In this document: positions 1,948-61,678 of the stretch, piece after piece
Layout: each line of letters opens with the position of its first letter
Position numbering within the stretch: position 1 is the first letter of the stretch
Virus record (IMG/VR): IMGVR_UViG_3300027710_000023
Source: a virus
Length of the DNA: 64,000 bases
Direction: 5' to 3' (one strand)
The notes under the pieces: generated by a model
What the model was told of the DNA's origin: nothing
Database searches by the model: none
Seen by the model: the letters and a program-made list of their open reading frames with translations, nothing else
Translations under genes and position numbers: made by a program

Positions 1948-4034
1948 AACCTTCAATACCAGATGATGGTGCTGTAGATTCCCAGATTGGTACAGCCTAT
2001 GATGTGGTTAAGACAGTTGCAGATAACTTACCTGCTTTATTGGAGTTAGCTGAAGATTTTGATAATTTAGAACAGAACTTCGTACCAAAAACACGTACTA
2101 TTAATGGTAAGGACTTAACTGCTAATATTGTAATTAACTATAGCGATTTAGGTAATATTCCAGCTACTTTGACTGATTACAGTAATGGTATTGCTTCTGC
2201 TGGTACTGGTATCTTTAAAAAGACAGCTGCGGGTGTTTGGTCATTTACCTCATTAGTAGCAGCAGATATTCCTGCTTTGGATGCAGGTAAAATAACAAGT
2301 GGTATATTACCGGTTAGTTTGGGTGGTACTGGTAGAAACGATAACAAGTCATCTGCTTGGATCAGCGCAAGAACTTTTACTATTGGTTCAACAGGTAAAA
2401 GTGTAGATGGTAGTGCGGCAGTTACATGGACATTGGCTGAGATCGGTGCTCAACCGGTAGATGCTACATTAACTGCGATGGCTGGGGTTACTACAGCAGC
2501 TGATCGGTATATTTATTTTACTAATTCAGATGTAGCAGTAGCAGGAACTATTACTACATTTGGTCGATCATTAATTGATGATTTGGATGCTGCTGCTGCA
2601 AGAAGTACTTTAGGTCTTGGTAGTGCTGCAACACAAGCATCCACTGCATTTCAGACAGCAGATGCAACATTAACAGCTATTGCTGGGTTAGTTACAGCAG
2701 CAGATAAAGGTATTTACTCAACTAGTGCAGATACATTTGCTACTTATGACTTGTCTGCATTTGGTCGTAGTGTGAGCGCAACTGCTAACGCAACAGCGTT
2801 AAATACACTATTGGGTGTAAGAACTAAAGCTGATCAAGATATACTTGCAAATATTCTTAGTCGTGCAACTGTAGATTATGATTTTTTTACAGGTATTTAC
2901 AAGAAATACCAAGATAGGTATTTAACTCAGTTACCTTTAAATGATTTGTTTACTTTTAATCGTTCAACAGCTTCTACTGCTGAACATCCATACGGTTTAG
3001 TGACATATGATATTAATGAGCCAGTAATTGCTTATAATCCTGTAAATGGTGATCGACTTGGTTTACGTGTTACTCCACAAAATACTAACCTGCTATTGAA
3101 CTCACAGTTTGTTGGTGCAAATGGAGAAACTGCTGCTACTGGATGGGCAATATTCTCAAACAGTGGAATTACAACAACTGAAGCCAGCTCCCGATATGCA
3201 GGTGCAACAAGAATTAAGCACACTGGCAATTTACAAAGGGAAGCTTATTACAGAGCAGTAACTTTGGCTCCGTTGCAAACGTATGTGTTTAGTGTTTATT
3301 TTGCTGCTGGTACAATTGCTGACGGCAATGTACTGCGCGTTTTAGGTGAAAGCGGCGATACACCTACCGGAGTAACTACACTTGCCGGATCAAGCGTTAC
3401 TGGGCCGGGTGTTTACAGTATAACTTTTACAACTGGTGCCGTTGGTGGGACTTATGGTGTTTATGTGGGGCTGGGTTGCACAGGTAACGCAACGGGTACA
3501 GTGATTCACGAAACGCCTCAATTGGAGCTTAATCTGGTTCCAACCGCATACACCCCGACACCTGTTGGAGCTACACAATCAAGAACAACTGATAATATTG
3601 TTGATAGTTGGGTAAATTTACCTGAATTCACTTTATTGTTTGATATAGCGGATAACGGAACAAATGATTTTACTGTTGTCGGTGGTGCTGGCAACACTTT
3701 TAATGACTGTGTTTATGCGGCTGATACAACATGGAATATTCGTAATAACAATGCAGTTGTGGCTACTTTGAACAGTGGTGTAGTAACGAACCAACGTAAC
3801 TGTATTGCCTTGCGCTGTAAAGCTGGTGACTACGCTTCGTTTCGGAATGGGGTAAAGGTTGCAGCAAGTTCAGCAGCAACTGGGCCTGCGCAAAACATGG
3901 CACGTTTTAAAATTGGTTCCGCACCTTGGGAAACAACTGCCACCAACGCAAATACAACAAACCTGACTTATAAGCGGGTAACTATCATCCCAAGAGCATT
4001 GACTGATGCCGAAGCAATCCTGTTGACTCAGTAA
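1938..4034 (+). CDS. tail fibre / receptor-binding protein
   Basis: N-terminal GILPVSLGGTG tail-fibre motif. Repeated TLTAxAGxxTAADxxIY shaft repeats. C-terminal lectin-like domain ending IPRALTDAE. Confidence 0.7.
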   Translation: MGMKPSIPDDGAVDSQIGTAYDVVKTVADNLPALLELAEDFDNLEQNFVPKTRTINGKDLTANIVINYSDLGNIPATLTDYSNGIASAGTGIFKKTAAGVWSFTSLVAADIPALDAGKITSGILPVSLGGTGRNDNKSSAWISARTFTIGSTGKSVDGSAAVTWTLAEIGAQPVDATLTAMAGVTTAADRYIYFTNSDVAVAGTITTFGRSLIDDLDAAAARSTLGLGSAATQASTAFQTADATLTAIAGLVTAADKGIYSTSADTFATYDLSAFGRSVSATANATALNTLLGVRTKADQDILANILSRATVDYDFFTGIYKKYQDRYLTQLPLNDLFTFNRSTASTAEHPYGLVTYDINEPVIAYNPVNGDRLGLRVTPQNTNLLLNSQFVGANGETAATGWAIFSNSGITTTEASSRYAGATRIKHTGNLQREAYYRAVTLAPLQTYVFSVYFAAGTIADGNVLRVLGESGDTPTGVTTLAGSSVTGPGVYSITFTTGAVGGTYGVYVGLGCTGNATGTVIHETPQLELNLVPTAYTPTPVGATQSRTTDNIVDSWVNLPEFTLLFDIADNGTNDFTVVGGAGNTFNDCVYAADTTWNIRNNNAVVATLNSGVVTNQRNCIALRCKAGDYASFRNGVKVAASSAATGPAQNMARFKIGSAPWETTATNANTTNLTYKRVTIIPRALTDAEAILLTQ

Positions 4035-6663: not shown

Positions 6664-7117
6664 TGGTTCAGGTTATTTAGGTTATGACTACGCTAATAAT
6701 AAGTGGGAAAAGAAAGAAAGTGAAACTATCGCTACTCAAGCTAAAATGATTAGTGATTTACAAGAAAAGTATCGATTAATTGAGAGTAAGACACAAAATG
6801 AATTTACAAAGATTGACAACAGCGATCAACACAAGATTTTGGCTTTACAAAGTGCCATTGATACTAACGAGTCTGTTATTGATAAGTTGCGCGCAGAAAT
6901 TACCAAATATAAAGGAATGTCCAAAATATCCACGAATACCGGAGTTAACAGAGAATTCGCGGCAACAGCCACTACCGCTGTACTGTATGCCGAATTGTTT
7001 GGACGCGCTAACGAAAGAGCAAGAGACTTGGCTATTGTTGCTACAGACACCAGAAACCGAGGATTAAGCTGCGAAGCTAAATACGATGCTATTTATCAGC
7101 AACAGTTTACCTTTTAA
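6608..7117 (+). CDS. i-spanin (Rz-like)
   Basis: N-terminal TM helix (FILLVLLISG) followed by coiled-coil and charged periplasmic sequence. Directly downstream of the endolysin. Confidence 0.55.
   Translation: MLKEYIEPIKFILLVLLISGSGYLGYDYANNKWEKKESETIATQAKMISDLQEKYRLIESKTQNEFTKIDNSDQHKILALQSAIDTNESVIDKLRAEITKYKGMSKISTNTGVNREFAATATTAVLYAELFGRANERARDLAIVATDTRNRGLSCEAKYDAIYQQQFTF
6798..7067 (+). CDS. o-spanin (Rz1-like lipoprotein) embedded in the +1 frame of the i-spanin
   Basis: Signal peptide with lipobox LISC. Short proline-rich mature part with three further Cys. Lies entirely inside 6608..7117. Confidence 0.55.
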   Translation: MNLQRLTTAINTRFWLYKVPLILTSLLLISCAQKLPNIKECPKYPRIPELTENSRQQPLPLYCMPNCLDALTKEQETWLLLLQTPETED

Positions 7118-22436: not shown

Positions 22437-25400
22437 ATGGAAAACAACACTCCTCAAACCGGAGAAGAGTTGCGCCAACTGTTATTGACAGAAGGTAATA
22501 CTCCTACCCGTGAATCAAAAGTTGTTATTGGTTCTCAAACCAAACAACAACAACTTCAAAACACTACTAACAAACAAATCAGTGTTAGTAACGCCTCCAC
22601 TAATAAACAAATTAAATTAAAACAAGAAACTGATCCTACTGTACCAGTTAATACGGATTTAGTTTCTTATGTTGATTTTGCAAAGTCTTTTCCTGAAGGA
22701 ACATCATTAATAGATATTGATGTTGAATACTTACGTAATCAACGTGCTACTAATGAAAGAAAACAAGCTGAAATTAATCAAAACTATGAACGTAAACGTG
22801 ATCGTAGTGTTAGTGAGATTGCTTCAGATACTGGACTAAGTTTAGCTAAGAATGCTTCTTTAATTGGTGAAGCGGCTTTAGGCTTTGCTGATTTAGCTGG
22901 TTCTGGTGCTACAGATAACTTTGGTAATAAATTAAACCGAGCTATGGGTGCTGTGCTTGGTAAAGACACTGCTATTCCTAAAGCAGAAGATTTAGACAAA
23001 CAAATGTCTACCAAAGTACAAGCTCAACAAAAAAATATTCAAGATCGTGTTGCTGCTGTTAAGAGAGCAAATGAGACTGCTACAGCTGCTTTAGGTGATA
23101 AAGCTACTTGGTGGGATACAGCTAGTTCTGTTGGTTCAGAATTGAGTGAGAACTTAGTAGCATTAGTTGATAACCCATCTGCTTTAGCTGATGTTGCTCT
23201 TTCATCCGCTTTAGCTTTTACAGTACCTGCTGCTGTGTCAAAAGGTTTAACAAAAGCTGCAATTAAGAATGCTAAGCCTGAAGATATTGCTGAACTGATT
23301 GCTTCAGGCAAATTAGATAAGTTAGGTGAAGCCGGTGCAGTGATTGGTACTGCTGGACTGGAAGGTTTCTCACAAGCTTATTCTGAGAAAGAAAAAGTAC
23401 TGGAAACTGATCCAAGTGCATTACGTGAAACTTCTCCTAAGTTCAGAGAGTTAGAAGATAAGTATGGTACAGATAAAGCAAAACAAATGATTGCTGATTC
23501 TGTATTTCAATCTAACTTAGGATTAACTGCTGTATTAGCTGGTGTAGCAAGTAAAGTTACTGGTGCTGCTAAACTAGAGAAAGATTTATTTGTTGGTTCA
23601 GATACTTTAACTGCAATTGGCAAAGAAGCATTAGAAGAATCATTACAGTCAGCATCTAGTAATACAGTAGCTAACTTAACTGAAAAGACTTATGTAGATA
23701 AGAACCAGACATTAACAGAGAACTTAGGTTCAGCTGTTGCTACTGGATTAGCTGGTGCTGTAGTAAGTACCGCTGCTCTAAGTGGTACTGCTAATGCTGG
23801 TTCTGTATTAGCTGATAAAGTTGATAAGGGTTTAGCCAAAGTACAAGACCAAGCTACTAAGTTAGCTAATGCTCAACAAATTAATACTGAAGTAATGGAA
23901 GCAGCTACAACAGGTAACTTTGATAAATTAACTTCTAATACTAATTTTAGTATGGAAGAAAAAATCAATATGTTACTTAGTGATGATGTTATAGGTAAAG
24001 TACCAGTAGAACAGCAAGCTAAGATTGCTGAATTTGCTGGAAATTACTATGCTTCATTAGAAGCAGAAGATAAAGATAAATTATCTACTGAACAACAAGA
24101 GTTATCTCAGACAACTGAGTTAGTTAAAAATAAAATAGTTAAAGATCAGATTGATCCTATTATTGGTGATTTAGAAAATATTGATGATGAGAAAGAAGGA
24201 ACTATTGTTCGTGCTTTAGGCTCTTCACCTAATTCATTTACACAAGATCAATTAATTCAATTGGCTCCAGTAGTTTCTGAAAGTACTCGTAGTATTGTTG
24301 ATGCTCAAATAGAAGCTAATAAAGCTATTGAAGAAGTGGAAGCTATTCCACGTAAAGCAACACAACAAGTTAATCAGGATGTAATTAAAGGTGGTAAAGG
24401 CTTTTTAGGTTTAAATGATTATCGTAGACGCTTTGAAGCAGCTATTGGCACAGGTAATGTAGAAGCTGCAACTAAAGCAGCAGATATGTTAGCTAACCTT
24501 GCTACATTGCAAGCTGGTAAAGCAGCTGACATGACAGCATTGATGAAACTTCATAATAGTGAAGGTAATTCACAAAGATACCAAGAAGCCACTAAGAACT
24601 ACCAAACTAAATACAATTTGAAACCAACCGATTCTATTCATCGTGGTTCAGATAAATCAGGTATGGTCAGCCTCGTTGTAAGCGAAGCTAAGGCATTAAA
24701 CAAAGCTCATAAGGTGATGGCAGCGGTATTGGGCCACCAGTCTGGTAAGCCAGTACAGGCGCTTAAAGCACCTAAAGCTACTGTGATCCCTGAAGCTGTA
24801 AAAGAGCCTGTAGCGGTTGCTAAGCCACAGCCGGGCATTCCTATGGGTGAACCAAAAGAAGCTTCTGTAGCTACTCCGGTGCCTGCTCCTGTTGAGGAAG
24901 CTAAGCCAGTTGCCAGCAGCGAAGCTGCGACAGCAACGGAGGCGAAAGCTGACGAAACAACAGAACCAGTAAAGAAAGAATTATCTGAGGCTGAAGAGTA
25001 CGCAGATAGTTTTAGTAATGAAACTAAACCAGAAAAACCAACTACACCGCCTATTCATATTAGTATGAAAGAACGTGAAGATAGACAAAGAGAAGTCAAT
25101 AAAAAGAAAAAACGTTTACAGAAGAAGTTAGAACAGAAAGAAGAAGCACTTAAGAAAGCAGAAGAACGTAAAAATGAAATACGTGATCTGGTTAACAAAG
25201 ATGTAGTACAACCAGTTAATGAAGCTATTAAAGCTACTGGTAATTATGGTAATAAAACAAAATTACGTGATTCATTAGTTAAATTTGGTAATGATGTATT
25301 TACTGCATTAAAAACCAAAGGTATTGCTGAAGCGCGTAAACGTGTAGGTAATTATGCTCGTGGTGCCAAGGATGCATTAAATCGTACTGTTGATATGATA

Positions 25401-28400
25401 GAAACAGATTCTGATTATGTAGCTGGAGCTAATGCAGTTAAAAAAGTATTTGCTTTCAAAGCTAACAAATCAATAATCACTAATAAGATTTATGATAATG
25501 GTATTGCTCGTTTCTTTAATACAGTAGATAAAAATACTTTGTTTAATACTACAGGTAATTTAATTGAAGCTATTCAAGAACGTTCAGATGAGTTTGGTGT
25601 ACAAAGTAACTCAAGCCAAGAAGTATTAGATAATTTTGTAGATTTCCATAAAAAATTTAAAGCAAGTGTAGAGAAGTTATTTAAAGCTCCTTATACAGAA
25701 AAAGCAATGGTTGTTAATAATAACTTTATGGGTTATTTCACTAATGCTGAAGGTAAGTTAGATGATGCTATGGTTACTGCTATGGCAGGTGTAGCTTATA
25801 ACTATATGACCGAATCTGCTTCTGACTTAATAGATAACGACGATGATGCTATTCGTAATATCTTAAACATGGAAGATGAAGAAGAAGTATCACCACAAAT
25901 ACGTAATGCTATGCGTTATGTAGGTATTACTTTAAATGTAGTAGCTGAATCAATGGGTGATCAGTTAGTTAGTTCTATTGGTTTAAAATATAAAACCAAT
26001 ATCTCTGAAGCAGAAGAAGCAACAATGAGTGCTTCATTAGGTACGTTTATTGTATCTATGCTTGAAGATGCTGGCTTAATGAAATTAACAAGCTATGGTC
26101 GTGATGCTTATTTAGAAATGGGTTTTGATGAAGCTACTATAGATAAATTCTTACCTGAAAAGTTAAGTGGTTATTTACAAGTACATTATATCCGCCCAGT
26201 AACACAAATGTGGACAGCTACTGATGAAGCTACAGGTAAGTCATTTGAGTATGAAGATTTGATTGAATCTGTTGTTAAGTCAAAAGATTTGTTACGTGCT
26301 GAGAAAGATGATCCTGATAATATGATTGAAGGTTTTAAACCAGTTATTAATAACATCTTTGACATTGAGCCATTAGATAAAGAACCTTTACTTGTTCAAC
26401 CTAAAGAACAAGGTAAGAAAGTTAAACGTAGTCGTCAATCTCAATCAGTAAAACAGAACCAAGCTATTAATAAGATGAGTCAAGAACCTTGGCAATTAGC
26501 TGATACTTTTGAATCATATAACAAGTTATCTGTTGAAGCTAAACAAGCTATTGCAGGCTTTGCTACTGAAGAAGAGATTGCTCATGCTCATGTGAGTAAA
26601 CGTGAAACTATGGCAGCAAATAACAAGAGTATCACTCGTGTTATTAAAAAGTTTGATGACTTTGTTAAGAATGCTGATGGTAAAGATTTCTACTTACCTG
26701 TAGAGGTATGGAAGAACTTACGTATGGGTTATAAGAGCAGTACTATTAATCCACAGACTAATAAAATGATTCGTCGTTTAATTGGTTTGAAGAATGGTAA
26801 TAAGACTGTTGATTTAACTAATGATGCTCATATTAAGACTTTCCGTATGGCATTAATGGAAGCATTCGATATTAAACTGAAATGGGAAAACATTCAGAAT
26901 GATGATGCTTTAAATGCTAAGTTAACTATCCCAGAAGTTAAAGCAGCTGTTGATATGCTTGTTGCTGGTAATATGAGTGAACAGGTATTAGTTAATGCTG
27001 TGAAGAAGCTTGGTACTAATTATCATGCTTATCATGGTTTGATTGCTTATGCTAAATCAGTAAACAACAAAGTGTTTGAAACAGATCTGTTATTTGAATC
27101 AGATGGTGTCGCTAACGGTGTAGCAATTAGTTTATGGCAGTTTGCTGGTGCAAGAACTAAAGAACAGTTTAAACAAGCAATGCAACGTACAGGTGTGTAT
27201 GAAAATAATGAATATGGCTCATATTTAGAATACCAAGCACAACAAGGTAACATGGATTCATACCAAGTACTTGCTAGTCGATGGGGTGCTGCCGTAAATG
27301 AGTTAAAAGGCTATATCAGTAAATCTGATATTGAGTACACTACTTTGTTTGCTAAGTTTAAAACTGAGAAAGGTACAGCTAAGAAATTAGGTTATTTAAT
27401 TAATTTCTTTGGTTCAAATGAGAAAGCTTTAGAAGGTGTAAATGCAATTACATCTTTAGTAGGTGATTTGACTAATACATTAGGTGAAGTTGAAAAGCTT
27501 GGTCGTGATATGGCTAAGTCTCCTACAATGACATCTATTTATAATGCCGGCTTAGATTCTATTTTAGATAAAGTATCTGATGGTATTATTGAAAGAATGT
27601 ACGATCAATTAGAAAATGATGTTAATAAAGGAACTAATAACAAAGAACGTATCGTTAAAGCTTTAAACGTATTGTTTAATGCTAACTTTGATATGGATAG
27701 TCCATTAGAATGGCAACTGTCAAATATTAAAGATAAATACACAATTACTACAATGGAAGGTAAGCAAATTAAAGTAACTGCTGAAGAAGGCTTAAAGCAT
27801 GTTATTGCTATGGTGTATGGCCCTACATTAGATAATGCTATGTATTCTGTGTATGGTAGATTGCTTGATAATCGTCAAACAGCAAACCAAGCTATTACTT
27901 ATGCTTTCCGTGTGTTTAAAGAAATTTATGACATTGAAGAGAAAAATAAGTTAGCTGAGCTGGGTGTTAGTAGTTTATCTAAAGATCAACGTGATGAATT
28001 AATTAATCAACTCAAACCATACTGGCCTGTACTTGCTACTCCTACTTCTAAAGATAACAGTGAAGGTATTCTGTTATTTAAAGAGAAGAAGCGCAAAGGT
28101 TATAAAACTGATGCAAAAGCTAAAGCATTTGCTGTAGTACAAGAGTACGCAGGTAAAATTGGTAGTAACGGTAATAAGCAACGTACTGTCAACGCTAGTG
28201 CTATTGCTTTAGAAGAACCGGGTGCTAGTGGTATTCCTACTGCTGTTCAGATGTTGGATGCTCATACTATGTTTGGTGCATTGTCTGAAGTAGTTGGCTT
28301 GAACGTACATGATGCTATTGGCTCAACTATTGCAGATGCTGATAATAATACCACAGCAATAAACAAAGCTTATAACCAAATGGTTATGGGTAATTATAAC

Positions 28401-31400
28401 ATTGAGACTTCTGTAGAGTTAATGTTAGATAATGCAATTAAAGCAGCACAAGCATATGGTATTGAAGATAAATTAAACAGAATGACAGATAGATATGATC
28501 AAACACTTAATCCAACTGAAGTAAAAGATCAGATTGAATTAAATATTGAAATGTCTAATAAGTTACGTTCATCTTTAAAAGTTAGTACCATATCTCAATA
28601 TGATAAACCTAATGGTGCTTATTTAACTGGTAATAGTGTTATTGATACTGATGAAGTAGTTGTTGAAGAAGTTGTACAAGATGTGTTTAAGGAAATGAAA
28701 GATTTGTTAGGTTCTCAGGATGTAACTAAAGGAACTGAAGACTTTTCACAAGCACAGACTTATAACGCAACTGTTGATAACTCAATGGATATTTTTAATC
28801 AACTGGAAACATTAGGTAGTGTAGAAGACAATACAGAACATAAAGAACACTTACGTTCTGTTTTATCAGAAATGATTAATAAAGTATTACAACCTACGTT
28901 AGTTGTGTTAGGTACTGTAGATGAAGCTACTCGTGGTAGATTCATGCAGGATGTTAATGGTAAACGCCAAATTGAAATTGCTACAAGTGTTGGTGATTTT
29001 GAGTACGGTTTATCTGCACAAGAAGTTTATGTACATGAAATGATCCATAACATTATTGGACATGCTTTATCATCAGGTGCTGTAGAAGTAAAACGTATTA
29101 CTGCTATGTTCAACGCAGTAAAAGATTTAGTGGATAGTGGTGACATTACTTATAAAGATTTTTTATCTTTGGATCAAGCTGGTAATACTATCAGTAATCC
29201 AACACAAGAACAGATTGATGATGCTACAGATAGATTAAATTATATCTTTAATAACACAACGGTACGTGTACGTAAGATTACTGATCCCGCTACAGGAATT
29301 GTTACTACTACTAAGACAAATAGTGCGTTAGAAGAGTTTGTTGCCTTTGGTACTACTAATGCTGCCTTTATGAAAGCATTAAATAAACCAAATGTACTTA
29401 TGGCTCTTAAAACTAAATTAAGACCAGAACACAGTAAAACTAAATCAAATACATGGTTAATCCAGAAATTTGACAGCATAGTTAATGCATTACTGGACAT
29501 GATTCAGTTTGCTATGGATAAGCTGACTGACCGGGTGTTGAACATTGCCGGGAAGAAAGTAGATGCTCAGTTGGCAACGCTTGTATCGGCTCTGGCTGGC
29601 GTTCAGGTGAAACATCAAAGCAAAGTGATGCAAGGTATAGATGCGGTGTTAGCGTTCAGCACAGCCTCAACCGCTAAGCTTAAAGCATGGGTAGTAGCAC
29701 CGATTGTTGCAGCTGCTAATAGCTCACGATTCAAAAACAGCAAGAATACTGTTGTTCGTGTGACTACTAAGGCAATTGCTGTTGCTGGTAACAGTAAAGC
29801 AGGTACTTGGGCTAAAGCGTTACGTCAAACACGTAGTCGTTTAAATATGACCCAAGATAACTTTGCTTTGTCGTTAGCTCAGGAAATTGCAGGTGTTACA
29901 TCTAAAAATAAACACTGGCATAAGTTATTACGTTTATCTAATAAACATATTGACCAATTACGTAAGCATGTAGCAACTACTGTTAAGAATACTCTTAATG
30001 AGCAGTACAGCTACACTTTAAATAAAGAAGAGAAAGCTGCTATTACTAAAGCAGTATTAAAAACTGATTTAACTGCGTTACTGGAATATGGTTACACTTA
30101 TGATGAAATCTATGATTTATTAAAAGATGAATCCAAGTTAACTAAAGTAATTGAAGATAAACAAGCTTTAATTAAGAAAACGTATACTCAAGGTGTTGGT
30201 CGTTGGGTATTAGACCAAAGTACTGGTTTATCTAATAAGATGATCACTGGAACTGAGATTCGTGGTAATCAAGGATTGAATGCTTATCAAATTGCTAACG
30301 GCTTTGGTAATCCAATTATCAAGAAACGTATGCAAGATAATAAGGTAGACAACAACCAATTAGAAAAAGATGTTGATGAATTAGTTACTTTAATGGCTCT
30401 GAACTTAGTTGATTCTAAAGTTAAAGCTAACGTGGTATCTATTTTTGATAAAGAAGTAGCTTCTGGTAAAACACTAAACAACAATGGTTTGAGTTTTACT
30501 ATGGAACATCACCGTAACTACAAAGTAGATTCACGTAATGAAAACTTTGATGGTAATCCAGCATTGATGCGTAAAGGGTATGTCAAAGAAATTACTGATC
30601 CTAATATTGCAGTACAAGTAGTTGACGTAACTGATTTTGTTAAAATTGCAGAGTTAGTTAAAGCAGGATACAAACCAACTCAACAATATATCTATGGTGA
30701 TGTGCGTGATCCTAATGGATCAAAAATGGAGATATACCGTAACACTGCTGCTAAGTTAGCAACTAACTCTGCTGGTATTGTATCCCTGACTTCTAAACAA
30801 AGCATGGGTACAGATATACTGGATGGTTTTGTTAACAAAGATACTATGAGTACTAATATTGGTTTGGATGCTTATTTAAATATCCAAGCAATTAATAAAG
30901 ATATGGAAATTGCAAGTAACGTAGGTATGACTGCATCAGGTAATACTAAGACTGTATTGTTAACACCTGTATTTAACTTAGATGGTGATGTAGTAAATTA
31001 CCGGTATGAAATGTCAGATGCTAATAAAGAAAAGTTGTTAAAAAGACACAATTCTTTTGATGACATTTTATCTGGTATGACTGCACAAATTAAAGATAAA
31101 GCTAATACTAAAACAATTAACAGTGTTGTAGTTGAGACTTTAAAGCAAGAGTTTGATGCAGAGTTTGTTAAGTCACCTAAAGAGTTTGTGTTAGTTGGTA
31201 TTAACAGTACTGATCCAGCAATGAAAGAGTTATGGTTTACTCTTCCAGAAGAAATGCGTATTGAAGCTACTAAGTTATTTGGTACTAAGGGATTATATGT
31301 TAAGAAGAAAGACTTACGTTTAATCTTTGGTTTCCGTAAGTTTACTGTGGGTGAGTGGGCTGAGAAGCTACAGGAACAAAGTAAAGTACAGAACAAGATG

Positions 31401-32357
31401 CTTAACTACGCAGCAAGACATGTACTTGAGTTGTTACAGAAACCTTTAGTACATCAAGGTGAAGAAGTATGGCAAGAAATTGTACGTATGGCTAAAGATA
31501 CTATTGTTGTTAAGACAGGTGCTACTTTAGTTGGTAACGTTATCTCTAACTTTGCAGTACTGATGACTGAAGGTGTTTCTTTCAGTGATATTCTTAAGTA
31601 CCACTCTATTGCATGGAAAGGTGCTAATAAATACCAGAAAGATAAAAACAAGTTGGATAGTTTGAAGTTGGAATTGGAAAACAAAAATAATCTGTCTGTT
31701 ACTGAAGCTGCCAAGATGAAACGTGAGATTGCTTTACTGGAAAACAGTATTAGCACAAACCCAGTTTATTCATTGGTTCAAGAAGGTATTTATCAGACGA
31801 TTGTTGAAGATGTGGACATGGATGAGGATACATTCAGTTATCAGAGTAAATTGGAAAAGGTAACTTATCCACTTACATCTAAAATACCTGATGTTATCAA
31901 AGACATGAGTAAGATTCTGTTTGTAACACATGATACGCAACTTTATAAAGCAATGCGTAATGCTACACAGATTAGTGACTTTGTTGCTCGGTTTACGTTG
32001 CATCAACACAACTTAACCAAACAAAAAATGAGTGAGGAAGATTCTATCAATAATATTGTAGAAACATTTGTTAACTATGACTTACCAACACATAAGAGTA
32101 TTCAGTATCTGAATGACATGGGTTTAGTTATGTTTAGTAAGTTCTTTATACGTATTCAGAAAGTTATCCTAAGACAGTTAACAGAAAGAACTGGTAACGT
32201 GTTGTCATTGTTCTTAGTGCAACAAATCTTAGGAATAAACATTGCTGATATATTTGATGGTGCAGTTGTGATGCCAAATACGATTGAAGCTAAGTTTGCT
32301 GATCCATTGGATCATGTAGACACTTTATTTGGGATTCACCTTTTTAACAACATCTGA
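22437..32357 (+). CDS. virion-encapsidated RNA polymerase (N4 vRNAP-like giant protein, 3306 aa)
   Basis: Single 9.9-kb ORF. The central region carries T7-like RNAP motif-C-like VHDAIGS and LFESDGVANG. Size and position match the N4 gp50 class. Confidence 0.7.
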   Translation: MENNTPQTGEELRQLLLTEGNTPTRESKVVIGSQTKQQQLQNTTNKQISVSNASTNKQIKLKQETDPTVPVNTDLVSYVDFAKSFPEGTSLIDIDVEYLRNQRATNERKQAEINQNYERKRDRSVSEIASDTGLSLAKNASLIGEAALGFADLAGSGATDNFGNKLNRAMGAVLGKDTAIPKAEDLDKQMSTKVQAQQKNIQDRVAAVKRANETATAALGDKATWWDTASSVGSELSENLVALVDNPSALADVALSSALAFTVPAAVSKGLTKAAIKNAKPEDIAELIASGKLDKLGEAGAVIGTAGLEGFSQAYSEKEKVLETDPSALRETSPKFRELEDKYGTDKAKQMIADSVFQSNLGLTAVLAGVASKVTGAAKLEKDLFVGSDTLTAIGKEALEESLQSASSNTVANLTEKTYVDKNQTLTENLGSAVATGLAGAVVSTAALSGTANAGSVLADKVDKGLAKVQDQATKLANAQQINTEVMEAATTGNFDKLTSNTNFSMEEKINMLLSDDVIGKVPVEQQAKIAEFAGNYYASLEAEDKDKLSTEQQELSQTTELVKNKIVKDQIDPIIGDLENIDDEKEGTIVRALGSSPNSFTQDQLIQLAPVVSESTRSIVDAQIEANKAIEEVEAIPRKATQQVNQDVIKGGKGFLGLNDYRRRFEAAIGTGNVEAATKAADMLANLATLQAGKAADMTALMKLHNSEGNSQRYQEATKNYQTKYNLKPTDSIHRGSDKSGMVSLVVSEAKALNKAHKVMAAVLGHQSGKPVQALKAPKATVIPEAVKEPVAVAKPQPGIPMGEPKEASVATPVPAPVEEAKPVASSEAATATEAKADETTEPVKKELSEAEEYADSFSNETKPEKPTTPPIHISMKEREDRQREVNKKKKRLQKKLEQKEEALKKAEERKNEIRDLVNKDVVQPVNEAIKATGNYGNKTKLRDSLVKFGNDVFTALKTKGIAEARKRVGNYARGAKDALNRTVDMIETDSDYVAGANAVKKVFAFKANKSIITNKIYDNGIARFFNTVDKNTLFNTTGNLIEAIQERSDEFGVQSNSSQEVLDNFVDFHKKFKASVEKLFKAPYTEKAMVVNNNFMGYFTNAEGKLDDAMVTAMAGVAYNYMTESASDLIDNDDDAIRNILNMEDEEEVSPQIRNAMRYVGITLNVVAESMGDQLVSSIGLKYKTNISEAEEATMSASLGTFIVSMLEDAGLMKLTSYGRDAYLEMGFDEATIDKFLPEKLSGYLQVHYIRPVTQMWTATDEATGKSFEYEDLIESVVKSKDLLRAEKDDPDNMIEGFKPVINNIFDIEPLDKEPLLVQPKEQGKKVKRSRQSQSVKQNQAINKMSQEPWQLADTFESYNKLSVEAKQAIAGFATEEEIAHAHVSKRETMAANNKSITRVIKKFDDFVKNADGKDFYLPVEVWKNLRMGYKSSTINPQTNKMIRRLIGLKNGNKTVDLTNDAHIKTFRMALMEAFDIKLKWENIQNDDALNAKLTIPEVKAAVDMLVAGNMSEQVLVNAVKKLGTNYHAYHGLIAYAKSVNNKVFETDLLFESDGVANGVAISLWQFAGARTKEQFKQAMQRTGVYENNEYGSYLEYQAQQGNMDSYQVLASRWGAAVNELKGYISKSDIEYTTLFAKFKTEKGTAKKLGYLINFFGSNEKALEGVNAITSLVGDLTNTLGEVEKLGRDMAKSPTMTSIYNAGLDSILDKVSDGIIERMYDQLENDVNKGTNNKERIVKALNVLFNANFDMDSPLEWQLSNIKDKYTITTMEGKQIKVTAEEGLKHVIAMVYGPTLDNAMYSVYGRLLDNRQTANQAITYAFRVFKEIYDIEEKNKLAELGVSSLSKDQRDELINQLKPYWPVLATPTSKDNSEGILLFKEKKRKGYKTDAKAKAFAVVQEYAGKIGSNGNKQRTVNASAIALEEPGASGIPTAVQMLDAHTMFGALSEVVGLNVHDAIGSTIADADNNTTAINKAYNQMVMGNYNIETSVELMLDNAIKAAQAYGIEDKLNRMTDRYDQTLNPTEVKDQIELNIEMSNKLRSSLKVSTISQYDKPNGAYLTGNSVIDTDEVVVEEVVQDVFKEMKDLLGSQDVTKGTEDFSQAQTYNATVDNSMDIFNQLETLGSVEDNTEHKEHLRSVLSEMINKVLQPTLVVLGTVDEATRGRFMQDVNGKRQIEIATSVGDFEYGLSAQEVYVHEMIHNIIGHALSSGAVEVKRITAMFNAVKDLVDSGDITYKDFLSLDQAGNTISNPTQEQIDDATDRLNYIFNNTTVRVRKITDPATGIVTTTKTNSALEEFVAFGTTNAAFMKALNKPNVLMALKTKLRPEHSKTKSNTWLIQKFDSIVNALLDMIQFAMDKLTDRVLNIAGKKVDAQLATLVSALAGVQVKHQSKVMQGIDAVLAFSTASTAKLKAWVVAPIVAAANSSRFKNSKNTVVRVTTKAIAVAGNSKAGTWAKALRQTRSRLNMTQDNFALSLAQEIAGVTSKNKHWHKLLRLSNKHIDQLRKHVATTVKNTLNEQYSYTLNKEEKAAITKAVLKTDLTALLEYGYTYDEIYDLLKDESKLTKVIEDKQALIKKTYTQGVGRWVLDQSTGLSNKMITGTEIRGNQGLNAYQIANGFGNPIIKKRMQDNKVDNNQLEKDVDELVTLMALNLVDSKVKANVVSIFDKEVASGKTLNNNGLSFTMEHHRNYKVDSRNENFDGNPALMRKGYVKEITDPNIAVQVVDVTDFVKIAELVKAGYKPTQQYIYGDVRDPNGSKMEIYRNTAAKLATNSAGIVSLTSKQSMGTDILDGFVNKDTMSTNIGLDAYLNIQAINKDMEIASNVGMTASGNTKTVLLTPVFNLDGDVVNYRYEMSDANKEKLLKRHNSFDDILSGMTAQIKDKANTKTINSVVVETLKQEFDAEFVKSPKEFVLVGINSTDPAMKELWFTLPEEMRIEATKLFGTKGLYVKKKDLRLIFGFRKFTVGEWAEKLQEQSKVQNKMLNYAARHVLELLQKPLVHQGEEVWQEIVRMAKDTIVVKTGATLVGNVISNFAVLMTEGVSFSDILKYHSIAWKGANKYQKDKNKLDSLKLELENKNNLSVTEAAKMKREIALLENSISTNPVYSLVQEGIYQTIVEDVDMDEDTFSYQSKLEKVTYPLTSKIPDVIKDMSKILFVTHDTQLYKAMRNATQISDFVARFTLHQHNLTKQKMSEEDSINNIVETFVNYDLPTHKSIQYLNDMGLVMFSKFFIRIQKVILRQLTERTGNVLSLFLVQQILGINIADIFDGAVVMPNTIEAKFADPLDHVDTLFGIHLFNNI

Positions 32358-45600: not shown

Positions 45601-46797
45601 TTAACTCCTTGTGTCAATATGAATCAGAGTACCAAAGTTTACTTTGGCATACTTGTTATCGGCACATAACCACACTGTTTCAAATGGTGTTGGTTGAGCA
45701 ATAGCACGACAATCAAGATCTGAATACACTACTAACAATCTTGGATTAAGTTTTCTTGTTCTTTCAAACAAATCTTCTAAACATGTACCACCAAGACCTT
45801 CAAACTCTAATGAACGAACATCATCACCTTGTTCAAAGGTTTTGGTCATTCGTACTTTAGTATCAAAGGACATAATGGTAATTTTTTCTGGTTTGATGTA
45901 ATCCTGCACATATTGGATATGTCCAATAAAAGATGCACATTGTTCATCAGTCATTGAGCCAGAAGTATCAAAACCAAAGATTACTTCACCATATGACTCT
46001 GAATAGAGTGATGGCAACATAAAGTCTGGTAAAAAGCGTCTATTGAAGCGACTATAGGAATAGTCTTCTTTAGCGTAGCTTGACAGAATGTTTTGGAAGA
46101 TTGTTTCCCAGCACAAAGGAGGGTTTGTAATGGCTTCCAGCTCATGTTTTAAAGAGTCTGGTATATGAGCACCATGCCCTGTCATACGCGCTGCTGTAGC
46201 CGCTTTGACGAGGTTTGAGTTGATAGTGGCATCAACGGTAGCATCTGGAAGTGGCTTGCCTTCAGGGTCTTTGGGCTTGCTAAAATCAGGCTGTCCTGAT
46301 CCTAATCCAGTACCCGGCCCAGCTGCATTACCTGCTGATGGGTTTGGTTTCTGCATATGTTGTTGGAATAAATCAGCATAAATAGCTTCTTTTTCCCAAT
46401 TAGCATATTTAGGATCACAACACCAAGTATCTGGTATTTCATATGGACAAGTGTTAGTTGTCTTACTCACATATTTTTTAAGCATGTGGTTATTGTAGTG
46501 ATCACATGCTTCATTCCAAATATCTGGGATTTTGTTTCCTACACGTAGCATATCTTTAAATGCTACATGCCAAGCTTCATGTGCTAATGCACTAACTCTT
46601 GCTTTAGGGGTTAAGCTCATATAAAAACTGGGATTAATAAATAAATTAATCCCATCTGTAGCTAATGTTGGAATTTCATCAGTCCAGTGCAGTTTTAAAG
46701 AAAATAGCATAGTAGCAATGAAAATACTTCCATTGTCTTTAATTAAACCATACTTAGCTTTATCATGAGCTAGTCGGACTTCATCAGAAATTTCCAT
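45601..46797 (-). CDS. vWA-domain protein with N-terminal HExxH metallopeptidase-like domain
   Basis: HEAWH zinc-binding motif. C-terminal MIDAS motif FDTSGSM. Confidence 0.6.
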   Translation of the reverse strand: MEISDEVRLAHDKAKYGLIKDNGSIFIATMLFSLKLHWTDEIPTLATDGINLFINPSFYMSLTPKARVSALAHEAWHVAFKDMLRVGNKIPDIWNEACDHYNNHMLKKYVSKTTNTCPYEIPDTWCCDPKYANWEKEAIYADLFQQHMQKPNPSAGNAAGPGTGLGSGQPDFSKPKDPEGKPLPDATVDATINSNLVKAATAARMTGHGAHIPDSLKHELEAITNPPLCWETIFQNILSSYAKEDYSYSRFNRRFLPDFMLPSLYSESYGEVIFGFDTSGSMTDEQCASFIGHIQYVQDYIKPEKITIMSFDTKVRMTKTFEQGDDVRSLEFEGLGGTCLEDLFERTRKLNPRLLVVYSDLDCRAIAQPTPFETVWLCADNKYAKVNFGTLIHIDTRS

Positions 46798-59501: not shown

Positions 59502-60218
59502 CTATTCCTTTGGTAATTGTAGAAGACCTGCTTTATAAAGCATTTTGGCTAAATTAGCAATATTACTATTATCATTAATTTGCCATTCATGAATAACAAT
59601 ACAGGCTTTATTAACTAACAAAGATTTTTGTTTCTCTTCTTCTTTTGTTTTTAAGTAATCACTAATAACTTTTTCTAAGTGAATATTGTTTTCACTTAAA
59701 ATAAAATCAAACTCTTCTTCTGTTAAGTTAGAAACAAGATCAAGTAATTTTTTTAAGTTTGTTTTTATACTTTTTTTAGAATGTTGATTCGGATTACCGA
59801 GATAACTAACATCTCTAGGTTGATACTTCGGATCAATAATTTTAAAAGAAGTAACACCTTCCCAATTAAGTTGATGAAACCAACATTCAGCAGATGTAAA
59901 ACCATCCCACCATTCAATTTTAATTTTTGGTTTAATATTTGGTTTTGTACCATTGTAATTATAGCGAATACCCCAACGATAACCGTCGATATAACCTAAT
60001 TCTTTAGCAGTAAATTCAAAGATGTTACGATCACAGACTAAACTAAAGTATTCTTTGTCATAAGCAGTACTACCAAAGACAAAATCATTTATTTGGTAAT
60101 CTTCTACAGATTTAGTACAAATTAATAAAACTTCTTTCTCTGAGGTGTGTATGGTTACATTAGACCATAAACCCTTATGTTCATGTACAGCTAATTCAAT
60201 TAATTCTTGTGTTGTCAT
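59502..60218 (-). CDS. hypothetical protein
   Basis: 238 aa. AAGGA RBS upstream of the ATG. Confidence 0.4.
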   Translation of the reverse strand: MTTQELIELAVHEHKGLWSNVTIHTSEKEVLLICTKSVEDYQINDFVFGSTAYDKEYFSLVCDRNIFEFTAKELGYIDGYRWGIRYNYNGTKPNIKPKIKIEWWDGFTSAECWFHQLNWEGVTSFKIIDPKYQPRDVSYLGNPNQHSKKSIKTNLKKLLDLVSNLTEEEFDFILSENNIHLEKVISDYLKTKEEEKQKSLLVNKACIVIHEWQINDNSNIANLAKMLYKAGLLQLPKE

Positions 60219-60228
60219 TTATGGATTC

Positions 60229-60262
60229 CTTAAAAACAAAAAGGAACCATAAAGGTTCCATA
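60229..60262 (-). terminator. rho-independent terminator (minus strand) just upstream of the 59502..60218 start
   Basis: On the minus strand, ggaacc ttta tggttcc followed by tttttgttttt. Confidence 0.5.
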
Positions 60263-61043
60263 ATAGGCAATGAGCTGGCTATCTCTGCGATAGCACCAAA
60301 CCGGAAAGGCTTCGGGTTTGCTTAACAGCATGACCTGCGCATTCAGCTCATTGGTTTGATGCTTTAAACTCGCTTACAGGCCACCAAGGCTCAGGCGAAT
60401 CGAACGCTTCCCGTCCACGCATCTAAAACACCAAACCAATAAACTAAAGTTGCTGGTTACGTTATCCAGCGTTAATAATGAAGTAGCATTATTAACCGTA
60501 CTGATTCAATCGTCTTAGAGGTTGACAACCATCAGTTGCAGACATTATTACCGCTTATCAACGTCCTTTACTGTCAGCAAAGGCTTCAGCTTCCCGTTAC
60601 AAGGCGTGGATTACCATCATCTGCTGGGACACCATCTTTATCGCGCATGGCGATGTTACACATGAAGCACCTTGATACTTCTGTCTGATGTTTACATCAC
60701 CACTTATCTCTAGGCATGAGAACAAGTACACAATGATTTAAGATGTAAACACCAGACAGAAATACCTAAAAACCTAGTATAAGTATTTCTGGGTTATTTA
60801 AACCAGTAACCAAGGTTGAGTTTTTTAACAAGCTGTATGTACACCAAAACAGTTAATTTCATAATGGACTTACTACTTACGATGCCAGTAGTAGGCTAAA
60901 TCAGTCGATGTTGTTTCATTTGCTAATATTCCTGGGTTTTAATAAAATTAGTCTAAACAACCTTCATTGTAGCTGACATTACTGCCACCGCCACCAACAC
61001 AAGTTAATCCCAATATTCTTCACACATTACACCCCCTATAGTG

Positions 61044-61071
61044 TTAAAAAAGACCGGTATTTCTACCGGTC
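61044..61071 (-). terminator. rho-independent terminator (minus strand) after 61151..61678
   Basis: gaccggta gaaa taccggtc followed by tttttt on the minus strand. Confidence 0.6.
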
Positions 61072-61150
61072 AAAACAAGGACACATCAACAGCGTCAGTT
61101 CCCTGACCCCTGCACTATATATGTAGGGCTATAAGCTGTCCAGAATTGAT

Positions 61151-61678
61151 TTACAGCGATTGTTTATTGCCCCGTGCTCTTGGCCTGCGTGGCTTACGAG
61201 CAACGGTTACACGGCCATCAGACACTGTTACAGTGCCTTGTGATTTTGAGTCAGCCACAGGATCTGTCTGAGGCTTATCAGCTTCTTTGGCACCAGTAGC
61301 AAATAACAGTTGTTCAGATAAAGTATTAACTTTAGTTACTAACTGTGTATTATCTTCAATATACACGTTAATTCTGGTTTGAAGAATGTCATTTGCTTTT
61401 TGATTAGCATCAGCCATATTTTTGTAATGGTTTACTTCATTACGTGAATCTTCAAGACGATTTAACGTTGATTGATGTATATCACTGTTATCTCTGATCA
61501 TTTGATTAAGAGATTTAACTCTGTCGTTGTACTCTTTATAAAGAGAGTTAGTAGTCTCTTTACTGTTTTCTAACTCGATAATTAAATCAAGCTTAGTACG
61601 TTTTTCTTTTTCAATTAGTAAAGCTAAACTAATTGTCAATACTGACAATAAAGCAATCATCATATATTCAAACATCAT
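61151..61678 (-). CDS. membrane-anchored coiled-coil protein with basic C-terminus
   Basis: N-terminal TM helix. Heptad-rich middle. RKPRRPRARGNK tail. Confidence 0.4.
   Translation of the reverse strand: MMFEYMMIALLSVLTISLALLIEKEKRTKLDLIIELENSKETTNSLYKEYNDRVKSLNQMIRDNSDIHQSTLNRLEDSRNEVNHYKNMADANQKANDILQTRINVYIEDNTQLVTKVNTLSEQLLFATGAKEADKPQTDPVADSKSQGTVTVSDGRVTVARKPRRPRARGNKQSL

Follow-up and report, generated by a model that had tools for sequence, protein, structure and literature searches.

What is encoded in almost a kilobase of phage DNA in which no gene can be recognised? The question is raised by the IMG/VR virus record IMGVR_UViG_3300027710_000023, of which a stretch of 64,000 nucleotides (nt), here called the window, was analysed; positions are those of the whole 64-kb stretch, and RNA coordinates refer to its minus strand. 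Between 60219 and 61150 lie 932 nt without an open reading frame (ORF) of at least 60 amino acids (aa) on either strand, the longest such gap in the window, the next one measuring 268 nt. A first reading of the DNA (hereafter the original prediction) had correctly singled out this ORF-free region of about 930 bp as the longest non-coding stretch, and had proposed that it holds one or more small RNAs, an origin of replication, or clustered hairpin promoters of the virion RNA polymerase (RNAP). Our analysis favours, with a probability of roughly 0.6, a non-coding RNA (ncRNA) locus on the minus strand, consisting of a 5′ element and a core that ends in a tRNA-derived cassette, whose transcript would be processed into a tRNA-mimicking RNA. 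That the region is a structured RNA gene on this strand is very probable, and that its RNA belongs to the cassette family described below and is related to tRNAs is probable; the mechanism of processing and tRNA mimicry is put forward tentatively.

Composition, terminators, and folding of the gene-free region

Two further features noted by the original prediction held up. The region is partly GC-rich (GC content of 0.40–0.46 across 60200–60700 vs. approximately 0.25–0.33 in the flanking genes), and it is bounded on both sides by minus-strand terminators that are kept in relatives (t1 and t2; Table 1). The downstream one, t2, is present in all relatives with one G-U change, and ends the RNA 15–20 nt before the start codon of a 238-aa gene. 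In a terminator scan of 2.6 kb, six terminator-like sites were found where 0.9 would be expected. Inverted repeats include a perfect 10-bp pair (60268–60277 with 60344–60353; I12) and a 10-bp stem with a 6-nt loop (60471–60496; I10), and longer ones are also present, such as a 23-nt pair at 60676–60698 and 60742–60764. The minimum free energy (MFE) of the fold was −302 kcal/mol for the minus strand (z = −6.5) vs. −244 kcal/mol for the plus strand.

Conserved core and its helices

Homologues of the 238-aa protein (78, 63, 61, and 46% identity) were found on contigs that are syntenic with the window, and all relatives retrieved in this way retain the non-coding region at the same place. Contigs of other phages compared with the window are labelled with L-numbers. 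The comparison with related phages, which the original prediction had recommended, showed a region that is kept in position and whose helices covary. A clade alignment of four sequences (the window, L005, L008, and L011) was folded with RNAalifold, yielding 160 predicted pairs, 21 of them with compensatory changes. In an edited structure of 149 pairs, 98% of the cells pair and 21 pairs are changed on both sides, vs. 33–42% pairing and 0–5 compensatory pairs when the partners were slid by 1 to 3 columns; none of 500 shuffles reached the observed value. Because only four sequences were used and the structure was derived from them, the slid control is fairer than the shuffles, and its outcome was clear-cut. 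Substitutions in the core track base-pairing rather than codon positions. Pairing is kept by G-U pairs on one strand, which indicates conservation at the RNA level, since the other strand would carry A-C mismatches.

Several of the individual helices (Table 1) bear on details of the original prediction. The perfect 10-bp hairpin with a 6-nt loop that it had described is present as H7, and in relatives its strands change from GUUAAUAAUG/CAUUAUUAAC to GUCAAUGGUG/CACUAUUGAC, with two compensatory pairs. A TTGACA hexamer at 60522, followed 18 nt later by TATTAC, is also present, but its implied role as a promoter did not stand: the pair fails the promoter scan and is not conserved. TTGACA lies inside H6, which carries five compensatory pairs, and so is not preserved as a promoter box. 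In the H5 domain, 94–100% of the cells pair, with one compensatory pair. The suggestion of one or more small RNAs pointed in the right direction, in that the locus is conserved, covarying, and strand-specific; the RNA is, however, larger and more organised, with a core of approximately 590 nt in addition to the 5′ element.

A modular cassette at the end of the core

The last approximately 185 nt of the core (60268–60448) represent one copy of a modular cassette that is found in other phages. Copies were retrieved from public collections with a clade-invariant 17-mer (AATGAGCTGAATGCGCA) and a gapped leader/trailer pattern, and chance matches were removed by profile and covariance-model searches. 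Approximately 20 non-redundant phage contigs of 33–56% GC carry the cassette. The cultured carrier Alishewanella phage Slicko01 was found separately, by a weak blastn match of the consensus unit that proved to be a real copy. Family membership was defined by a leader CAGUUUAUUGG and a trailer CCAAUGAGCUGAA with a stem of at least 20 bp around a variable cargo, an arrangement that the window shows at 60342–60446. Leader CAGUUUAUUGG and trailer CCAAUGAGCUG form the conserved base of the duplex. All units have the leader [C/U]AGUUUAUUG[G/C] and the trailer [C/G]AAUGAGCUGAA, from which pairing runs on into a stem of 20–28 bp; the 5′ leader strand of the window includes UAGUUUAUUG. The apical cargo measures 30–130 nt, and the sequence of the distal stem is wholly different between copies while its pairing is retained.

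A covariance model of 22 units (R1) showed double changes in 13 of its 22 pairs, and 88% of the cells pair vs. 33–53% in the slid control, a result reached by none of 500 shuffles. R1 detected exactly one unit in the window (60342–60446), scoring 61.6 bits on the minus strand (E approximately 1e-12) vs. 28.2 bits on the plus strand; a second unit in the window was looked for with this model and not found. Tandem arrays of two or three units occur in five other contigs (L012, L022, L056, L068, and L072). The ORF-free regions around cassettes span 540–1600 nt, several of them ending in a terminator on the same strand, and the neighbourhoods of cassette loci, within 5 kb, have no protein family in common.

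Cloverleaf and competing folds

Downstream of the cargo, the trailer strand is also the first strand of a tRNA-sized cloverleaf (Table 1). The original prediction had described a nested inverted repeat enclosing two small hairpins; the repeat exists, but the full structure is a three-armed, tRNA-shaped cloverleaf that forms part of the widespread cassette. Its invariant UGAGCUG/CAGCUCA pairing corresponds to a 7-bp acceptor-like stem. A CAGCUCA-like 3′ strand follows the trailer in 22 of 23 units (19 of them exact), each time preceded by a hairpin, at a distance of 22–136 nt (64 nt in the window), or of 644 nt where an ORF is inserted. The arms of the cloverleaf show five compensatory pairs in comparison with the L013 lineage, with 96% of the cells paired vs. 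20–45% when slid. A long-range closing helix predicted by RNAalifold (60801–60817 with 60299–60318) gave way to the local arm of the cloverleaf, for which covariation against L013 was seen.

Since the 5′ strand of the cloverleaf closing stem is the 3′ strand of the long stem, the two pairings are mutually exclusive. The invariant trailer strand AAUGAGCUG has two possible partners: the leader, in a pairing that includes two G-U pairs and stacks on the long stem, and the downstream CAGCUCAUU, in Watson-Crick pairs throughout. The leader pairing is supported by the G/C identity beside the trailer strand, which changes in concert with the leader (GC in 17 units, CG in five), and the cloverleaf pairing by the universal presence of the 3′ strand around interiors of 22–644 nt. 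When either fold was forced, the predicted energy shifted by −1.2 to +5 kcal/mol across 18 units; for the window the shift was 1.2 kcal/mol. We read these near-equal modelled energies as a possible built-in bistability between a "full long stem" and a "closed cloverleaf".

A second three-strand arrangement was observed at 60683–60790, where AGGUAUUUCU can pair with the upstream AGAAAUACUU in H1 or with the downstream AGAAGUAUC in a longer H2; through this alternative pairing of AGGUAUUUCU, H2 can extend to approximately 25 bp. H2 and the cassette stem have the 8-mer UGGUGUUU in common and nothing more.

Relation to tRNAs

The link to tRNAs is seen in other carriers of the cassette. The cargo of Slicko01 (L066) is a tRNA-Phe(GAA) according to ARAGORN and scored 34 bits with the Rfam tRNA model, above the gathering score of 29; the distal long stem in this phage is thus a tRNA acceptor stem, lengthened by approximately 14 bp by leader and trailer. 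The cargo of L063 was called tRNA-Ser by ARAGORN alone, and the cargos of L019, L022, and L056 (unit 3) contain a canonical T-arm right before the 3′ strand. Cargos that are plain hairpins occur in L024 and L005. The cassette is immediately preceded by real tRNA genes in L019/L025, L059, and L056, and immediately followed by them in L070 and L072. L064 has a canonical T-arm (GCAGGUUCGAAUCCUGC) as the last arm of its cloverleaf, and in many copies the first arm resembles a D-arm (GCGC-AAGUGGUGAUU-GCGC). A second unit in L072 (1070–1264) has a mutated trailer (AAUGAACUG) and, 1 nt further on, a genuine tRNA-Arg(UCU) with encoded CCA in the place of the cloverleaf.

In the window, the T-loop-like GTTCGATTC to which the original prediction had drawn attention is present (minus strand, 60403–60395) and caps the cargo hairpin; the remark proved helpful, given that the cassette is related to tRNAs. 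The cloverleaf has the size and topology of ordinary phage tRNAs, and the Slicko01 cargo scores like one. In contrast to them, the window copy has no anticodon arm, D-loop, or correctly placed canonical T-arm, and the conserved parts of the cassette are its flanks rather than the tRNA body. Judged by a 7-bp acceptor stem, a GG-containing D-arm, a 7-nt anticodon loop, and a GUUCRANYC T-arm, the window copy is not a tRNA; its heptaloop tops a rod-like hairpin.

Searches for known families, also recommended by the original prediction, came back empty for the window. ARAGORN found no tRNA and no transfer-messenger RNA (tmRNA) in the whole window, and the Rfam tRNA model had no match at 60000–61400 at E-values up to 10. 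When Rfam was searched at gathering and at permissive E-values with the window and 25 related loci, no family was recognised even at E up to 10, the region giving only chance-level matches (SraG, sroB, RyhB-like terminator matches, and miRNA models). Likewise, megablast and blastn searches with the region revealed no similar DNA among 50,697 phage records (INPHARED), back-translated searches of IMG/VR with both flanking proteins gave no match, and a literature search with the motif string returned CTGF primer sequences only.

Comparison with known phage RNAs

A close parallel is the pair rnaC (species 1) and rnaD (species 2) of phage T4, which are also non-coding, stable, tRNA-sized, and of unassigned function, and which lie at the end of the phage tRNA cluster on the same strand. 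Species 1 of T4 is a textbook target of RNase III. A canonical T-arm lies beside the 3′ end of rnaC, and the same cluster contains the gene of the homing endonuclease SegB. The two systems nevertheless differ: the T4 region gave R1 scores no higher than 10 bits and lacks the AAUGAGCUG/CAGCUCA signature, and the window RNA is 5–6 times longer and is not beside any tRNA.

GOLLD and ROOL are large ornate phage RNAs encoded near tRNA islands, and a tRNA can be embedded in a linker of GOLLD (PMC12286853). Like GOLLD (RF02032), the RNA described here is a large phage or prophage RNA with variable and conserved parts; the conserved element, however, is a cassette of approximately 200 nt, sometimes in two to three tandem copies, instead of a 3′ core of approximately 400 nt. 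Identity with GOLLD was rejected, as neither the window nor the cassette loci matched the Rfam model at gathering (150 bits) or at E up to 10, while the positive control, the GOLLD of Caulobacter phage Ccr34, which encloses a tRNA-Gly, scored 165 bits with the same tool. The reciprocal search of the Ccr34 GOLLD locus with R1 was empty. With ROOL, the RNA shares size, ornate structure, phage association, and a frequent position near tRNAs; there was no Rfam match in the window or the cassette loci, and no common motif was seen. As large structured phage RNAs that lie near tRNAs and can hold one, the cassette loci are of the same general kind as GOLLD and ROOL; no tRNA adjoins the window copy. 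Separately, a permuted tmRNA (Rfam, 71 bits) was observed in Ccr34 (L073, 2268–2586), approximately 500 nt from GOLLD, and no annotated feature covers it in the stretch of the GenBank record examined.

YrlA is a tRNA mimic in which the ends of the module form a long stem with a T-arm domain at its tip, and phage-encoded examples exist (PMC4201824). Its long stem replaces the anticodon stem, and the motif GNCGAAN0-1G on the 5′ strand binds Rsr (PMC4201824), whereas the stem of the cassette continues the acceptor stem and has CAGUUUAUUGG as its 5′ strand. YrlA was rejected as an identity: the GNCGAA motif is absent from all units, the topology differs, and there was no Rfam YrlA match. A YrlA gene is expected within about 4 kb of an Rsr (Ro60/TROVE) gene on the same strand; Pfam and PHROG scans of 20 nearby window proteins detected no TROVE domain. 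In the N4-like Pseudomonas phage LUZ7, an intergenic hotspot gives rise to several overlapping ncRNAs shorter than 250 nt that are probably processed (PMC9163698). These RNAs are the sole precedent in N4-like phages. That hotspot lies at orf69/70 and belongs to the late phase, and the region studied here has no similarity to INPHARED phages. A catalogue of approximately 10,000 candidate phage RNAs has been published (PMC10690425), and the cassette may already be among its unnamed candidates.

Exchange of cassettes between phages

Cargos are swapped between phage lineages. The window unit (60342–60446) differs from the unit of L059 (5903–6009) at approximately three positions over approximately 105 nt, cargo and T-loop included; L059 belongs to an unrelated phage lineage, and its unit directly follows tRNA-Met and tRNA-Arg. 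The close N4-like relatives L005, L008, and L011 have a different cargo in the same stem. Cloverleaf interiors are of at least three types, which do not follow phage relatedness. These sequence comparisons are evidence that cassettes have been exchanged horizontally between phage lineages.

In L011, the most distant N4-like relative, a gene for a 199-aa HNH endonuclease (648–1247; PHROG 953, E = 1e-77) replaces the cloverleaf interior, 3 nt after the invariant 17-mer. This is the only such insertion among approximately 25 cassette copies. The enzyme may be a homing endonuclease that targets the conserved 17-mer site, and its position recalls that of SegB in the T4 tRNA cluster. The HNH insertion raised the question of whether the region could itself be a group I intron, an identity that was rejected: the region had no Intron_gpI match, although such introns were detected elsewhere in L019, L013, and L059. 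These introns (Rfam Intron_gpI, 37–97 bits) lie in genes near the cassette, at 3549–3769 and 5702–5950 in L019, 6493–6713 in L013, and 239–471 and 765–990 in L059; the lineage that bears them is the same one that has the cassette beside its tRNAs.

The 5′ element, the variable segment, and genome context

Upstream of the core (Table 1), a 110-nt block (61041–61150) is 96–99% identical among the window, L005, and L008, vs. 62–64% for the adjoining upstream gene, and is unique in the window. The TGGACA-17 nt-TATAGT match in this block agrees with the promoter consensus at 10 of 12 positions and was the best minus-strand match of the scan. Judging from its sequence, the element could encode a small RNA of approximately 60 nt or act as a leader/attenuator. 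In the variable segment between this block and the core, a hairpin at approximately 60869–60895 shows one compensatory A-U to G-C change relative to L011, by direct reading of the two sequences.

Table 1. Positions of the RNA features and signals in the gene-free region
Feature	Position	Strand	Description
Sigma-70-like promoter match (candidate only)	61114..61142	minus	TGGACA-17 nt-TATAGT; directly after the stop codon of the 175-aa gene
Conserved leader or candidate small RNA	61041..61112	minus	Hairpin GUCAG-GGAA-CUGAC (5 bp), then t1; −24.9 kcal/mol, z = −3.0
Terminator t1	61071-61052	minus	8-bp stem, then U6; intrinsic, kept in relatives
Variable segment	60823..61040	minus	Mostly common to L011; absent from L005, L006, and L008
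Structured ncRNA core	60238..60822	minus	~20 helices, ~590 nt; reaches ~800 nt with the lineage-specific 5′ extension
H1	60758-60790	minus	Within the H1/H2 stretch 60683..60790; from inverted repeats I1 and I9 and the MFE fold
H2	60683-60757	minus	16-bp stem, three compensatory pairs
H5 domain	60538..60624	minus	6-bp closing helix around four short hairpins; tRNA-sized multi-way junction
H6	60500-60536	minus	Holds TTGACA; five compensatory pairs
H7	60471-60496	minus	Perfect 10-bp hairpin; two compensatory pairs
H8	60452-60470	minus	Invariant
Long-stem unit	60342..60448	minus	26-28-bp duplex; 5′ strand UAGUUUAUUGGUUUGGUG 60448-60422, 3′ strand CAUCAAACCAAUGAGCUG 60366-60342; encloses the cargo
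Cargo	60367..60421	minus	Irregular hairpin, T-loop-like heptaloop tip GCG-UUCGAUU-CGC 60395-60403; not a tRNA
tRNA-sized cloverleaf	60268..60353	minus	86-nt four-way junction; −35.2 kcal/mol, z = −3.9
Cloverleaf closing stem	60353-60344 with 60277-60268	minus	CAAUGAGCUG with CAGCUCAUUG; 10-bp perfect pairing
Cloverleaf arms	60325-60338, 60297-60320, 60278-60294	minus	Compensatory pairs in all three
Terminator t2	60259-60243 (element 60233..60259)	minus	GGAACC-UUUAU-GGUUCC, 6 bp, then UUUUUGUUUU (U-tract)

The source phage is a novel N4-like podovirus of approximately 33% GC, with a virion RNAP ORF of 3306 aa (22437–32357) and structural proteins less than 46% identical to those of known Schitoviridae. 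Genes from 32.5 to 64 kb lie on the minus strand, including those flanking the gap (a 175-aa gene upstream and the 238-aa gene downstream). A 99.99%-identical contig that reaches beyond the window end shows a T7-like RNAP gene (Pfam RNA_pol; RNAPII-type), and the RNA locus lies approximately 3.7 kb downstream of it on the gene strand. By N4 gene order, this position places the locus in the middle-gene region and not at the extreme early end, so that its assignment to the early part of the genome by the original prediction had to be revised. Searches anchored on the dUTPase and on a 168-aa protein reached distant phages only, which have ordinary tRNAs in the equivalent gaps.

Some observations concern the surroundings of the locus. 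In relatives, a tRNA-Met lies approximately 3.6 kb downstream of the RNA locus (L005, 9665–9740; L008, 6143–6220); at the corresponding place in the window, approximately 57520, two ORFs abut, and tRNA genes are altogether absent from the window phage. L004 has, upstream of its homologue of the 168-aa protein, a gap with a truncated tRNA-like fragment (approximately 6860–6900) whose anticodon-loop-like CUCUAAU contains the amber-reading triplet CUA; neither ARAGORN nor Rfam called the fragment. A free-standing ORF for a 398-aa HNH endonuclease (45601–46797, minus strand; PHROG 1314, E = 2e-107) is located among the replication genes of the window.

Proposed mechanism and points against it

In the favoured explanation, transcription would run on the minus strand, in the same direction as the flanking middle genes. 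It would start either at the conserved box at 61142–61114, with partial read-through of t1, or at an unrecognised middle promoter near 60830, where the core starts. RNase III would cut the long duplexes of at least 22 bp, namely H2 (approximately 25 bp) and the unit stem (26–28 bp). Cleavage of the long stem would free the trailer and allow the cloverleaf to close, and RNase P would act at the cloverleaf, whose shape it recognises. This would yield stable RNAs of tRNA size, which would imitate tRNAs without taking part in decoding and could serve as decoys or scaffolds for tRNA-recognising factors of the host or the phage, like T4 species 1 and 2 and YrlA. A decoy for tRNA-targeting host factors is one guess.

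Several points weigh against this explanation. The structure that was tested derives from the same four sequences that make up the clade alignment. The expectation that the RNA would be better conserved than the flanking genes was not upheld on measurement, nucleotide identity of the core (75–88%) being similar to that of the flanking genes (59–95%), with the 110-nt 5′ element alone standing out. The closing stem of the cloverleaf never varies, and covariation therefore cannot confirm it. Among approximately 25 cargos only two were called tRNA, one of them by a single program, and in the window both ARAGORN and the Rfam tRNA model fail to recognise the cargo or the cloverleaf as a tRNA. Promoter, processing, and product stability are inferred, cleavage by RNase III and RNase P being assumed from the length and shape of the stems. 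Finally, the lack of a conserved protein partner within 5 kb means that no specific target is indicated for the putative mimic.

A more far-reaching version appears doubtful at present. The cassette would then represent a mobile phage RNA of a new class, namely a bistable "tRNA holder" in which a tRNA or tRNA-like cargo sits on a duplex of RNase III length fused to a pseudo-tRNA cloverleaf that shares its acceptor strand, exchanged among lineages with the occasional help of homing endonucleases. Its use might lie in diverting host immunity aimed at tRNAs (anticodon nucleases and tRNA-cleaving toxins) as a decoy, or in supplying the units of large self-assembling RNAs that would be analogous to GOLLD and ROOL without being related to them.

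Alternative explanations

The main competing explanation, which we consider unlikely, is that the whole RNA of approximately 0.6–0.8 kb stays uncut and works as a single large, ornate RNA of the same kind as GOLLD and ROOL, for instance as an RNA-only multimer, with its free 5′ leader or 3′ strand making contacts in trans. Size, many helices, phage origin, and a tRNA-island position are hallmarks of that kind, for which a scaffolding function within larger assemblies has been proposed (PMC12286853). The tRNA-Gly inside the Ccr34 GOLLD also fits this reading, as do the terminator-ended ORF-free regions of 750–1600 nt in which other phages have the cassette, and each conformer leaves one of two equivalent strands unpaired that could pair in trans. 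However, GOLLD and ROOL gave no match at E up to 10, R1 had no match in the GOLLD locus, only the N4-like clade has the parts upstream of the cassette, so that no large core is common across phages, and multimerisation is pure conjecture. It is improbable that the phage derives no function from the locus, which would then be what is left of a decaying tRNA gene array or a selfish cassette that homing endonucleases spread. Real tRNAs occur at or near this place in relatives and other phages while the window has none, the window cargo resembles a degenerate piece of tRNA, and core nucleotide identity is close to that of neighbouring genes; an HNH gene lies inside one copy as SegB lies inside the T4 tRNA cluster, and cargo is swapped between lineages. 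Neutral decay would not, however, be expected to leave 98% pairing through 21 compensatory changes or stems whose pairing outlasts the turnover of their sequence; furthermore, a dense 70-kb lytic genome with no other gap above 268 nt retains 932 nt here, and the HNH gene is found in only one of approximately 25 copies.

Quite improbable is a role as a cis-acting leader, in which the bistable cassette and t2, with t1 upstream, would form an attenuator for the operon of the 238-aa gene and perhaps sense a tRNA or a protein. Two exclusive pairings of one invariant strand at near-equal energy, intrinsic terminators directly upstream of the next gene, and the position of the cassette directly before a conserved gene without an intervening terminator in L013, L019, and L059 would suit such a switch. 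Against this, there is no overlap or competition between the t2 hairpin and either conformer, the cassette can be present in tandem and can precede unrelated genes or tRNAs, and a leader of 600–800 nt with approximately 20 conserved helices far exceeds known attenuators. The two DNA-level elements suggested by the original prediction are highly improbable, even though many inverted repeats do lie in a long non-coding stretch of an N4-like genome. For a replication origin, there is no inflection in GC skew, which falls steadily (cumulatively) through the region, there are no iteron families but only weak two-copy direct repeats, and the region is enriched in GC rather than AT. N4 early promoters are DNA hairpins with 5–7-bp stems, 3-nt loops, and conserved flanks, located at the early end of the genome. 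The helices found here instead belong to one strand and maintain G-U pairs, model and energy scores are strongly strand-asymmetric (R1 61.6 vs. 28.2 bits), stems measure 10–28 bp with loops of 5–11 nt or larger (no dedicated consensus search was run for N4 promoter hairpins), the locus lies downstream of the RNAPII-type gene, and phages of unrelated lineages, with none of the window's flanking genes, carry the same cassette. One or more hidden small protein genes are scarcely credible. ORFs of 33–50 aa do occur in the gap, and a plus-strand one (60536–60688) is 85% identical to an ORF of L005; yet it starts with TTG, is antisense to the flanking genes, and is broken in L008, none of the small ORFs is intact in all three full-length relatives compared, and substitutions follow pairing.

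Significance for phage biology

Large structured phage RNAs beside tRNA genes are known (GOLLD, ROOL, T4 species 1 and 2), with a function established for none of them. The tRNA-associated phage RNA with unassigned function is thus a known kind, whereas the architecture found here is new: a family undetected by Rfam 15, with conserved flanks, a swappable cargo, and one strand shared by two competing helices. These three features, together with the tandem copies and the exchange between unrelated phages, offer direct experimental handles. Phages that count as "tRNA-free", like this one, may carry tRNA-derived RNAs that standard annotation overlooks.

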